A DNA stretch of 23,428 bases from a virus (IMGVR_UViG_2602041549_000007:1-23428), one strand, 5' to 3'; positions 8,375 to 11,237 are shown, counted from the first letter of the stretch. A program made the numbers and translations. The notes: generated by a model from the letters alone, not told the origin.

Positions 8375-8581
8375 GTGAGTTGTATTAATGACCTGAACAC
8401 GGGCGATATCAGGGGTGGTTCCGTTCATCTGGATGCGCAGACCGTTATGCGCCTTAAGCAGTACAGGATCGACCATATAAATCATCATCCTGACAAACCA
8501 TTACCAGGTGTGGCGCAGATTGTCAGACATGCCGTAAACACCTGGCTTAATCAGAATGGTTTTGCATCGGTGGGGGAATAA
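8375..8581 (+). CDS. Hypothetical protein (68 aa), translationally coupled to the satellite capsid gene
   Basis: GTG start with AAGAGGAAG RBS; its TAA overlaps the ATG of the downstream gene (TAATG). Confidence 0.5.
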   Translation: MSCINDLNTGDIRGGSVHLDAQTVMRLKQYRIDHINHHPDKPLPGVAQIVRHAVNTWLNQNGFASVGE

Positions 8582-10494
8582 TGAATCGCTGGTACACCAT
8601 TAAGGCGGCGGATGTGCGTGGAGCGGCGGATATATCTATCTATGAGGAGATTGGCGGCTTCGGTGTTACTGCAAAGCAGTTCGCGGAAGACCTGAAAGCC
8701 CTTGGCGATGTTTCACATATCAATCTGAGGATCCATTCACCTGGTGGTGATGTGTTTGAAGGCATCGCCATCTATAACCTGCTACGGAATCATCCGGCAG
8801 ACATTACGGTTTATATCGATGGTGTTGCGGCTTCAATGGCTTCGGTGGTCGCAATGGCTGGCGATCGTGTAGTGATGCCGGAGAACGGCATGATGATGAT
8901 CCATAAACCGTGGGGGATCTCTGGCGGAAATGCTGGCGATATGCGTGATTATGCTGATTTGCTGGATAAGGTGGAAACCGTGTTAATCCCTGCTTATGCC
9001 AGAAAAACGGGCAAATCAGCACAGGAAATTACCGCCATGCTGGAGGATGAAACCTGGATGGATGGTAAAGAATGCCTTAAGCACGGTTTTGCTGATGAAT
9101 TGTTGCCATCCGTCAGAGCAATGGCGCGAATTGAATCGAAACGCACAGGAGATTTTTTACATATGCCGGAAACCATTAAAGGAATGATTACACCGCCACA
9201 GGGAGCGGCAAATATTGCTGGTAATGAACAGAAGCGCATCAATGGAATAAGTGAAGTGTTTAGCCTGTTCGGCAGTCGTTACGATGGGATCAAAATGGCG
9301 TGTCTGGAAGATGCATCATGTACACCGGAAATGGCCCGTGAAAAGCTGTTGAACGAGCTGGGGCGCGAGTCCACGCCATCCAATAAAAATACCCCGCCTC
9401 ATATCTATGCCGGAAACGGAAACATAACAGGTGATGCAATTCGTCAGGGGCTTTACTCCCGTCTTGGGTATGAACGCCCTGAACGAGGCAACCCTTACGC
9501 GATGATGAGCCTTTTTGAAATGGCCCAGGCATCACTAACTGATCGTGGTATCAGTGTTGGCGGTTTTTTAAATCGCTCGCAGGTCGTTAATGCAGCTTTC
9601 ACACACAGCAGCAGCGATTTTTCTCATATTCTGGCTGGTGGCGCTGAAAAATCAGTACTGAAAGGCTGGCAGGACAGCGGCGAAACGTTCCAGAAATGGA
9701 CGCGTACCGGTTCGCTTTCAAACTTTCATGAAGCAAAGCGCGTTGGTCTGAATGGTTTTTCAAAGCTGGATAAAGTACCGGAAGGCGCGGAATATAAATA
9801 CATCACCACCAGCGATAAAGGTGTACCTATTGCGCTGGCCACGTACGGGAATATTTTTTCCGTTACCCGTCAGGCCATTATCAACGATGACCTGACCCAG
9901 TTAACTACAATCCCCATGGCGATGGGACGCGCAGCTGCCAGAACAGTTGGCAATCTGGTTTATCTCCTGTTAACCAGCAACGGCAAGTTTACGGATGGTA
10001 AAGCGTTATTCCATGCCGATCATAAAAATCTTATTGCGAAGGATATGGACATGGAGGGGCTTAACGAAGCCCGTAAGCTGATGCGCCTCCAGGAAGACGC
10101 TAACGGCGATTCGCTGAATATTACCCCCGCATTTGTCCTGGTCCCCGCCGCGCTGGAGTCTGCCGCACATCGCGCCATTCTGTCATCGTCATCACTCTTT
10201 CCGGTTGATGGCGTGAGCACTATCAATCAGAACCCCGGCATCATTAACGTGGTGAAAGATATGGCGGAGGTAATCGTTGAGCCACGTCTTGATAAAGCCA
10301 ATAACAAGGAGTGGTATGTGGCAGCGGCGAAGGGTATGGACACGATAGAGGTCGCTTATCTTGATGGTATTGATACGCCATATCTTGAGGAGCAGGAGGG
10401 ATTTACTGTTGATGGCGTCGCCTGGAAGGTGCGCATAGATGCAGGTGTCGCGGCCCTCGACTATTGCGGATTACTGAAATCGAGTGGAGCATGA
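8581..10494 (+). CDS. Prohead protease (ClpP-like) - major capsid protein fusion, satellite copy
   Basis: 637 aa; N-terminal ClpP/S14-like protease segment (GGDVFEGIAIYN..VDGVAASMASVVAMAGD..MIHKPW) and C-terminal HK97-fold/Mu gpT-like capsid region; roughly 65-70% identical by eye to the helper gene 14739-16697. Confidence 0.85.
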   Translation: MNRWYTIKAADVRGAADISIYEEIGGFGVTAKQFAEDLKALGDVSHINLRIHSPGGDVFEGIAIYNLLRNHPADITVYIDGVAASMASVVAMAGDRVVMPENGMMMIHKPWGISGGNAGDMRDYADLLDKVETVLIPAYARKTGKSAQEITAMLEDETWMDGKECLKHGFADELLPSVRAMARIESKRTGDFLHMPETIKGMITPPQGAANIAGNEQKRINGISEVFSLFGSRYDGIKMACLEDASCTPEMAREKLLNELGRESTPSNKNTPPHIYAGNGNITGDAIRQGLYSRLGYERPERGNPYAMMSLFEMAQASLTDRGISVGGFLNRSQVVNAAFTHSSSDFSHILAGGAEKSVLKGWQDSGETFQKWTRTGSLSNFHEAKRVGLNGFSKLDKVPEGAEYKYITTSDKGVPIALATYGNIFSVTRQAIINDDLTQLTTIPMAMGRAAARTVGNLVYLLLTSNGKFTDGKALFHADHKNLIAKDMDMEGLNEARKLMRLQEDANGDSLNITPAFVLVPAALESAAHRAILSSSSLFPVDGVSTINQNPGIINVVKDMAEVIVEPRLDKANNKEWYVAAAKGMDTIEVAYLDGIDTPYLEEQEGFTVDGVAWKVRIDAGVAALDYCGLLKSSGA

Positions 10495-10501
10495 CAACAA
10501 G

Positions 10502-10524
10502 GGCGGCGATAGCCGCCTTTTTTT
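10502..10524 (+). terminator. Rho-independent terminator after the satellite capsid gene
   Basis: GGCGGC-gata-GCCGCC hairpin plus TTTTTTT. Confidence 0.7.
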
Positions 10525-10526
10525 GC

Positions 10527-10598
10527 GGGTCCTCCCGGTGTAGTGACCTGCCACGGGGCGGGAGCGGCGCGGAAAAAGGCTAGTTTTTGCATTTTCAT
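10527..10598 (+). other. cos site B (lambda-like cosQ-cosN), satellite copy 2
   Basis: 72 bp, 4 mismatches to copy A; predicted cohesive end GGGCGGGAGCGG at 10556-10567; lies ~195 bp upstream of the terS2 start, the same spacing as cosN to Nu1 in lambda. Confidence 0.75.
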
Positions 10599-10751
10599 TC
10601 GTCATCATCATCTTTCTATCATATTGAATTTTAAGTGTTTTTATTTTTGATATGTTAATTTTGCTTATTTTGTGTTCAACATACAGCGCGTTTTTTGACC
10701 TTTTTTAAAAGATATTTGCAAGATGCATGTTTAAAACATTCTGGAGCGGGT

Positions 10752-11237
10752 ATGGATCGGGAACTGAAAAATCTGATGCTGAACATTAACCAGCTGGCGG
10801 CGATAGCGGGAATATGTCGCCAGACTGCGGCGGCAAGGCTGAAAAATATCCAGCCAGCCGGAGGACATGACAAGCTGAAACTCTATCGGGTGACTGACAT
10901 TCTGACCTGTTTTCTTGATCTTCCCGTTCTGGCATCACTGGAAGAAATGGAGCCACACGACCGTAAGGCCTGGTATCAGTCCGAACGTGAGCGCCTCAAG
11001 TTCGAACAGGAAACGGCGCAACTCATACCCGCCGATGATGTGCGAAAAGAGATGGCTATATGGGGAGAAATCGTAAGCGAGGAATTGGAAAAACTCCCCA
11101 GTATTCTGGCACGTGATGTTGGGCTTAAACCGATGGCAGTAAACAGAGTGCAGTCAATTATTGACGATTTGTGTAATCAGATTATCAGCCGGATGGTAAA
11201 AAATGACGTAGTGAATGAGGTCGCAAAACAGGCATGA
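10752..11237 (+). CDS. Terminase small subunit, Nu1-like, satellite-encoded paralogue
   Basis: GGAG RBS 5 nt before ATG 10752 (the tracked ORF from 10695 is over-extended); shares the WYQSERERLKFEQE region with the helper terS, otherwise diverged (about 35-40% by eye). Confidence 0.8.
   Translation: MDRELKNLMLNINQLAAIAGICRQTAAARLKNIQPAGGHDKLKLYRVTDILTCFLDLPVLASLEEMEPHDRKAWYQSERERLKFEQETAQLIPADDVRKEMAIWGEIVSEELEKLPSILARDVGLKPMAVNRVQSIIDDLCNQIISRMVKNDVVNEVAKQA

Follow-up and report, generated by a model that had tools for sequence, protein, structure and literature searches.

The stretch of DNA considered here, referred to throughout as the window, is a viral sequence of 23,428 nucleotides (IMGVR_UViG_2602041549_000007:1-23428) in which a co-oriented island of 10,341 bp (window 1558-11898) lies within the large terminase gene (terL) of a lambdoid Escherichia coli prophage, hereafter the helper. 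Towards the right end of this island, positions 8375-11237 hold a small gene (p68), a gene for a fusion of protease, scaffold and major capsid protein, and a gene for a small terminase subunit (terS2); a further small gene (p95) follows directly, and two predicted cos sites lie on either side of the capsid gene. The gene map, drawn from an open reading frame (ORF) listing together with Pfam, PHROG and NCBIfam scans, indicates that this segment is very probably the functional late zone of a Gram-negative phage-inducible chromosomal island (PICI), the class of satellite defined by Fillol-Salom et al. 2018 (PMC6092414) for EcCICFT073, EcCIIHE3034 and EcCI18098.

The boundaries of the island are sharp. 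The two halves of the helper terL read ...RIASFWM on the left and EGPAAAY... on the right, and the gene is split between the gpA ATPase domain (568-1560, plus strand; PF05876 GpA_ATPase, ending in RIASFWM and then a stop) and the gpA nuclease domain (11899-13008, plus strand; PF20454, E=5e-84). A 7-bp core, CTGGATG, is present at 1551-1557 (attL) and repeated identically on the same strand at 11892-11898 (attR). When the flanks are joined, they reconstruct an empty terL site, to which many E. coli terL genes have an uninterrupted match at 99.7%, and 449 genomes a match at 99% or better; the insertion of the island is therefore precise and site-specific. The right junction was found in 82 of 5,426 complete E. 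coli genomes, O121 strains among them, and the left junction in 19, the smaller number being plausibly explained by variation of the N-terminal half of terL between prophages.

Within these limits, the genes typical of PICIs, i.e., those for an integrase, a helix-turn-helix (HTH) regulator, Bro-N, DUF4222, an AAA_25 protein and SSB, as well as a set of iterons, are all on the plus strand, and in gene order, replication module, size and missing phage genes the island has what defines a Gram-negative PICI. No portal, TerL, tail or lysis domain is found between 1558 and 11898 by the ORF listing, Pfam or PHROG, which bears out the statement in an earlier note on this DNA that the satellite has neither portal nor TerL. 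Past the island, the nuclease half of terL from 11899 is followed by gpW, a portal gene, a second protease-capsid fusion and tail genes, all of the helper.

The capsid fusion and p68

The gene at 8581-10494 (plus strand) codes for a ClpP-like protease/scaffold/major capsid fusion of 637 aa, free of frameshifts, which scores 896.8 bits against NF045540, the NCBIfam model for the 'ClpP-like prohead protease/major capsid protein fusion' with a curated whole-protein cut-off of 475, and also matches Pfam CLP_protease and Phage_capsid_4. Its protease retains the Ser and His motifs (GVAASMA and MIHKP). The proposal that it is a diverged paralogue of the helper fusion with a linker about 28 residues shorter holds on both counts: the two proteins are 57% identical over their full length, and BLASTP places a single gap, of 29 residues, in the linker between protease and capsid. 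The coordinates given earlier for the helper fusion (14739-16697) are right at the end and off at the start, the RefSeq start of the prophage fusion being a GTG at the position corresponding to 14670, within the last part of the portal gene. The N-terminus of the satellite fusion, MNRWYTIKAA, aligns to prophage residues upstream of 14739; the helper fusion probably starts upstream of that position. In the extent 14670-16697 it is 99% identical to the fusion of an intact E. coli prophage (L021), as is the helper portal (13217-14725) to the portal of the same prophage, both genes being on the plus strand.

The linker deletion is common to all enterobacterial satellite alleles examined. What is absent from all of them, and present in every prophage allele, is a Pro/Gln-rich tether together with the start of the next helix (DENAIRAQVLAEQ...). 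Counting as fixed those positions that are invariant inside each clade and different between the clades, satellite and phage fusions are set apart by 35 differences, with one in the protease, six in the tether and scaffold and 28 in the shell domain; 14 of the 35 fall at residues 292-354. Such a pattern is as might be expected of a protein that still assembles with altered assembly properties, and does not in itself prove a change in head size. The ratio of non-synonymous to synonymous substitution (dN/dS) of the satellite fusion lies at 0.04-0.17 among close copies; for the Trabulsiella allele compared with that of Kluyvera it is 0.056, against 0.05-0.09 for phage alleles. Between the satellite and helper capsid genes, dS is about 1.6 and 43% of the residues differ. 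Among 50,697 phage records the best full-length match is again at 57%, and the matches at this level are to Stx (Shiga toxin)-converting phages, mEp043, mEp213 and their relatives, with genomes mostly of 42-47 kb. By these comparisons, the fusion type found in Stx-converting and mEp043-like phages has an old satellite lineage, to which the capsid gene belongs.

The late module is by no means confined to this prophage. In strain Ecol_224, the order SSB-p68-fusion-DUF1441-p95 stands alone between cspD and clpS with no adjoining prophage; the module also occurs at other chromosomal sites, once (E. coli, L026) in tandem with another island, and copies covering at least 80% of it were counted in 171-184 complete E. 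coli genomes, spread over several integration sites. In a cross-genus scan with one genome per species, fusion alleles in satellite context from Escherichia, Trabulsiella, Buttiauxella, Phytobacter and Kluyvera are 71-79% identical to the window fusion and have p68, AAA_25 or an integrase upstream and no portal there, while alleles in prophage context, i.e., after terS-terL-W-portal, are 55-58% identical to the satellite fusion and 71-75% to that of the helper. Two satellites with the same capsid lineage (L004 and L016) have no TerS; therefore, the capsid and TerS are not an obligate pair. One of these, from Kluyvera (L016:4701-10873), is apparently itself inserted in the protease domain of a helper protease-capsid fusion, since a truncated helper-type fusion follows 2.5 kb downstream. 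In the marine gammaproteobacterium Halioglobus japonicus (L019:2543-8872), an integrase, an AAA_25-like gene and a 46%-identical fusion occur together without a portal, and going by this gene content, satellites of this type with a capsid gene may be found far outside Enterobacteriaceae.

Directly ahead of the fusion lies p68 (8375-8581, plus strand), a satellite-specific small gene with a GTG start, whose stop overlaps the ATG of the capsid fusion, the two being translationally coupled. It matches phrog_4934 (E=7e-34), has no Pfam or NCBIfam family, and has a dN/dS of 0.13-0.19. An AlphaFold 2 (AF2) model from the single sequence is of low confidence (predicted local distance difference test, pLDDT, 62) and has two main helices. 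Neither p68 nor p95 has similarity to TerL, portal, gpW or capsid sequences.

Two cos sites and a composite TerS

A search with a cosN pattern found two matches against 0.02 expected by chance, both on the plus strand and both within an 80-nt direct repeat that flanks the capsid gene. The first, cos1 (7991-8227), combines a lambda-like cosN at 8017-8036 with a helper-type cosB; it is 89% identical over 237 nt to the entire helper cos region (taken from the cos-terS junction of strain fS58a, L001), cosB included, and ends in a stump of five codons of a helper-type (type-1) terS, MELPV and then a stop. This stump shows that phage pieces were brought together by deletion to form the late zone. 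The second, cos2 (10519-10751), lies directly upstream of terS2 and has its cosN at 10553-10572; cosN is common to it and the helper, the predicted cohesive end differs by 1 nt and the cosB downstream is different. Over 238 nt it shares 79% identity with the cos region of L021, an intact prophage. Thus, the island has one cos of the helper type and one that fits its own TerS. In EcCICFT073, two cos sites have been found functional by experiment (PMC6092414).

The product of terS2 (10752-11237, plus strand) is a TerS of the DUF1441 family, matching PF07278 (E=2e-35) over profile positions 1-145 of 147 and phrog_141, 'terminase small subunit' (E=2e-56). The helper has its own terS (20-559, plus strand; PF07278 E=1.8e-44, phrog_141), with a DNA-binding domain of what is here called type 1. 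The view that terS2 is a diverged, intact paralogue of the helper gene is upheld by the shared families; BLASTP aligns only the C-terminal 75 residues, at 49% identity. The alternative that terS2 is simply the helper terS displaced by rearrangement was rejected, given the separate helper gene and the precise ends of the island. No Nu1 family is among the Pfam matches of terS2 at E<=0.01, nor is there a Nu1 chain in the PDB sequence search.

The two halves of TerS2 point in different directions. Its N-domain, of type 2, is 13% identical in a multiple alignment to the TerS of the host prophage and 61-62% identical to the TerS of other enterobacterial prophages, and the TerS of L021 is 67% identical to TerS2 as a whole. 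Homologues of the DUF1441 TerS lie between cos and a gpA-type terL in the prophages L021 and L022-L025. By this comparison, the DNA-binding domain of TerS2 belongs to the TerS type of another group of lambdoid phages, whose cos matches cos2. In the AF2 model (pLDDT 78.6) this domain is a predicted winged HTH with the order beta-alpha-alpha-beta-beta-alpha, and the best Foldseek neighbours are winged-HTH proteins of the MerR family, at a level that is not significant (E=0.1-1).

The C-terminal module of about 60 residues (...EIVSEELEKLPSILARDVGLKPMAV...MVKNDVVNEVAKQA), by contrast to the phage TerS proteins, departs from them at near-invariant sites, with the segment ERDCALTP of the phages replaced by ARDVGLKP and the acidic tail missing. 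Two distinct N-domain alleles carry this module, each time in a satellite and in the slot between the capsid fusion and p95; it was found in three proteins (P0002, P0004 and P0007), with the satellite context confirmed for the latter two. Where the N-domain allele of the window is joined to an acidic C-domain of the phage type (P0010), the gene belongs to a complete prophage and immediately precedes terL. At the nucleotide level, matches of terS2 to phage records are limited to nucleotides 1-431, and neither the C-terminal module nor p95 has a match in the phage collection. The dN/dS of terS2 is 0.20-0.25, and the C-terminal module is under purifying selection. The C-terminus of lambda Nu1 binds gpA (PMC6739421), so the satellite-specific module is the part expected to handle the helper TerL, be it directly, by way of p95 or by way of the helper TerS.

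Overlapping the stop of terS2 by 4 nt is p95 (11234-11521, plus strand), a conserved PICI gene (phrog_1561) with a dN/dS of 0.23-0.35, whose product is 77% identical to that of the 93-aa ORF following terS in EcCIIHE3034. It has no Pfam family, neither it nor terS2 has an NCBIfam family, and PDB sequence searches with both gave no meaningful match. It is kept at the right end of PICIs with quite different capsid and TerS types. About 1,650 E. coli genomes match 10495-11760, most of them only in part, and many of the sampled ones, O157:H7 included, match only in the p95 segment.

Comparison with known satellites and function of the late zone

The nearest counterpart in layout is EcCIIHE3034, the late zone of which runs through SSB, a 68-aa ORF, capsid, decoration protein, a hypothetical protein, TerS and a 93-aa ORF. 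With it and with other classical PICIs the window island shares a size of about 10 kb, int and alpA on the left, a primase/helicase with an origin, SSB and the lack of portal, TerL and tail genes; with EcCIIHE3034 it further shares the late order of small ORF, capsid, terS and 93-95-aa ORF, and with EcCICFT073 the possession of two cos sites. The parts themselves are different: EcCIIHE3034 has a lambda E-type capsid with a decoration protein where the window has the protease-scaffold fusion, its TerS has no detectable similarity to the DUF1441 TerS of the window, and its 68-aa ORF cannot be aligned with p68. The site differs as well, the window island lying in a prophage terL and not at cspD/clpS. 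Thus, the architecture is conserved, with capsid and TerS cassettes exchanged, apparently to suit the helper type. EcCICFT073, for its part, carries genes for a capsid (c1499) and a decoration protein (c1500), and both EcCIIHE3034 and EcCI18098 encode a TerS (PMC6092414). In the survey of Tommasini, Mageeney and Williams 2023 (PMC10111431), capsid is the commonest late gene of Gram-negative PICIs, being present in 21 of the 29 reference islands. The earlier note had regarded the window satellite as an intermediate between known types; as a new class this is not supported, since a gene content of capsid and TerS without portal or motor is already on record. Undescribed details are the dual cos, the satellite-only TerS module, the GpA terL site and the integrase nonsense codon.

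The same survey described PICIs embedded in prophage late genes (helper-embedded or HE-PICIs) with a four-zone organisation. The window island has the four zones (integration, Bro, replication and late) and encodes a homologue to one of the late genes of the helper; with terL split and CTGGATG at both ends, it is also in the embedded configuration. Its target, however, is a TerL of the GpA family, unlike the published gene-A sites (A:Terminase_1:132, 245 and 246), all of which are of the Terminase_1 family; a GpA-type site is among neither the 14 late-gene sites published in that paper nor its att-site files. With the founding 11capE integrase, that of the island shares just 25% of its residues, and it is at best a distant relative. 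From the capsid-forming PICIs (cf-PICIs; EcCIEDL933, bioRxiv 10.1101/2022.09.08.507074), which carry capsid, protease, portal, head-tail connectors, HNH, TerS and TerL and borrow only tails, the island differs in having no portal, connectors, HNH or TerL, although it shares the int-alpA-rep backbone and its own capsid, protease and TerS; membership among them was rejected on gene content, the capsid/protease fusion and TerS alone being present.

Two other systems offer precedents for the separate parts of the late zone. In SaPIbov5, a cos-type satellite that likewise encodes a homologue of the helper capsid and borrows portal and terminase, the capsid homologue Ccm forms the pentamers of small T=4 shells (Carpena 2016; Hawkins et al. 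2021, PMC8569155). Ccm, from a Gram-positive system, has a demonstrated role and consists of a capsid homologue alone, whereas the window fusion, for whose putative action Ccm is the proposed model, includes a protease and scaffold as well. In the redirection of packaging by Rpp proteins (Fillol-Salom et al. 2019, PMC6739421), too, the island has its own cosB with a cosN shared with the helper and encodes a protein, here with a predicted winged HTH, that would be expected to read it. Unlike Rpp, terS2 codes for a full-length homologue of DUF1441 TerS proteins without sequence similarity to RppC; an Rpp identity was rejected for both terS2 and p95, neither of which has an RppC chain among its PDB sequence matches at E<=10.

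We favour, with moderate confidence, an account in which 8375-11237 is the late zone of a Gram-negative PICI in helper-embedded configuration and works as follows. Upon helper induction, excision of the island would restore terL and be followed by island replication; TerS2 would then bind cosB2 and recruit the helper TerL to cut and package island DNA, with cos1 additionally permitting packaging by the helper's own TerS. The satellite fusion would assemble on helper portals, either alone or mixed with the helper capsid protein in the manner of Ccm in SaPIbov5, giving heads that favour the island and are possibly smaller, and tails, portal and packaging motor would be borrowed from the helper. 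The steps of this account are not of equal strength. That TerS2 redirects packaging is probable; that the fusion or p68 changes the size of the head is doubtful, and is the weakest step. By analogy with P4/P2 and SaPI1/80-alpha, one copy of the island would fill roughly 70% of a T=4 head. A more specific version, in which the short-linker fusion, perhaps with p68, builds satellite heads on helper portals, and the TerS2 module, possibly with p95, captures the TerL of several helper types, strikes us as rather unlikely.

Several observations weigh against this account. In EcCICFT073, the loss of c1499 or c1500 left both transfer and interference unchanged, and multimers of that island fill heads of phage size (PMC6092414, PMC6739421); EcCIIHE3034, with its capsid and TerS, was transferred very poorly in the only test reported (PMC6092414). 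Four copies of the window island come to 41.4 kb, an amount that a head suited to the related phages, with genomes of 42-47 kb, would accommodate; small heads are thus not required, and the arithmetic of head size does not decide the matter. With the divergence of the TerS2 C-terminus and the loss of its acidic tail, direct binding to TerL is not assured. Finally, to judge by its nonsense codon, the integrase, and with it this copy of the island, may be inactive.

The first of these points are the ground for the strongest alternative, namely that the capsid gene does not serve satellite heads at all and that ordinary helper heads are filled with about four concatenated copies of the island (4 x 10.34 kb), the fusion then serving, as it might, in interference with helper assembly, as a backup or compatibility supply, or as homology for recombination. 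Besides the phenotype-free deletions and phage-sized capsids of EcCICFT073 and the fit of four copies to the phage genome sizes, this explanation can draw on the satellites of the same lineage that lack a TerS. It has, on the other hand, to accommodate a fusion kept across genera under purifying selection equal to that of the phage alleles (omega about 0.05), as well as the linker deletion and shell substitutions specific to the lineage, which point to a protein that still has a structural role, in modified form; moreover, Ccm of SaPIbov5 is a case of head size being redirected by the capsid homologue of a satellite. We take it as a serious contender, placed below even chances.

A second alternative concerns TerS2, which might act in the manner of Rpp, binding cos2 by its winged-HTH domain and reaching TerL only through mixed oligomers with the helper TerS, formed by way of the conserved central region, and also blocking the packaging of helper DNA. 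For this mode of action there is a documented precedent (PMC6739421), and the central segment of TerS2 (MEPHDRKAWYQSERERLKFEQE) is close to that of the helper protein, while the would-be TerL-contact segment has diverged, the acidic tail is lost and the C-terminal module is seen only in satellites. Yet the DUF1441 profile is matched along the whole length of TerS2, there is no sequence similarity to RppC or any other solved structure, and a C-terminal module under purifying selection could equally be a variant that binds TerL; an Rpp-like action is taken to be improbable. That 8185-11520 is instead a functionless remnant, either the decaying head region of a second prophage or a recent duplicate of helper genes, can hardly be right despite the terS stump behind cos1 and the integrase nonsense codon of this copy, in view of the intact state of all four late-zone ORFs under purifying selection, the several sites and other genera in which the module or its capsid lineage recurs, its constant place beside PICI replication genes and never beside a portal, and the 43% residue difference and dS of about 1.6 between the capsid genes; neither the decaying fragment nor the near-identical recent duplicates that the earlier note had named against its own reading were thus found.

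Set against these alternatives, the favoured account of a PICI late zone that redirects packaging and contributes to the heads bears on a wider question. Most Gram-negative PICIs keep a capsid gene, and the sole genetic test, that in EcCICFT073, gave no phenotype, which raises the question of why it is kept. The present locus is a clean system for this question, with a satellite-only lineage, constraint at the level of phages and a fixed linker deletion; further, the capsid adjoins a TerS whose DNA-binding and C-terminal halves have separate histories, and the island sits inside terL, itself one of the genes it has to borrow. If satellite heads are indeed built on helper portals and TerS2 captures the TerL of several helper types, this would be a genuine 'half capsid-forming' PICI lineage parasitising Stx-converting and mEp043-like phages, and the first function for the capsid genes of most Gram-negative PICIs. 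As the related helper phages include Stx-converting phages, such islands could affect the production of toxin phages. If the capsid gene proves dispensable here too, the island is an ordinary member of a described family.

Integration, Bro and replication zones

The left part of the island begins with a tyrosine integrase (1722-2960, plus strand; Arm-DNA-bind_3, Phage_int_M and Phage_integrase) that is split across two ORFs by a TGG->TGA change at 2484-2486, which leaves the catalytic domain cut off from the domains for arm and core binding. In strain fS58a the homologous protein is intact, at 399 aa. The stop codon implies that the island, and with it the split helper terL, may be locked in place, barring readthrough or a sequencing error. 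It is followed by an AlpA-like HTH gene (2973-3176, plus strand), with a weak match to HTH_17 (E=0.004) and a homologue annotated as an HTH regulator at the equivalent position in fS58a, and by a Bro-N gene (3234-3812, plus strand; Bro-N E=2e-18). The stretch 2973-3812 thus corresponds to the integration and Bro zones of Gram-negative PICIs, with the zone order as in PMC10111431. An ORF of 317 aa (3769-4722) overlaps the end of the Bro-N gene, and its C-terminus matches an Icd-like cell-division-inhibitor domain and a PHROG 'transcriptional repressor' family; the equivalent stretch in fS58a is annotated as a pseudogene fragment and separate small genes. Opposite to it, on the minus strand, is an ORF of 168 aa (4480-4986) without a family match. 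An Rfam scan of 1-13000 gave neither a P4-type immunity RNA nor any other credible family.

The replication zone (5367-7950, plus strand) comprises DUF4222, the AAA_25 helicase/primase-like protein of 471 aa (5663-7078, plus strand), iterons, an 83-aa ORF and SSB (7528-7950, plus strand). The iterons, AAAAAGTGGGGAGTAAAA at a spacing of about 84 bp, lie at 7077-7290, which is probably the origin of replication. In this zone the replication gene differs between islands that are otherwise 98% identical (window 6024-7346 versus L001:17643-19447), with fS58a having a 605-aa 'DNA primase family protein' in place of the 471-aa AAA_25 protein of the window.

A mosaic is also seen in the target gene itself. 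The TerL of the intact prophage L021 (L021:7711-9813) is 75% identical to that of the window over the N-terminal 331 residues and 98.6% identical over the C-terminal 370, and the boundary between the two parts coincides exactly with the att site of the island. To go by this coincidence, there are hints that embedded islands or their integrases may promote the exchange of cassettes of terS and the N-terminal part of terL between prophages.

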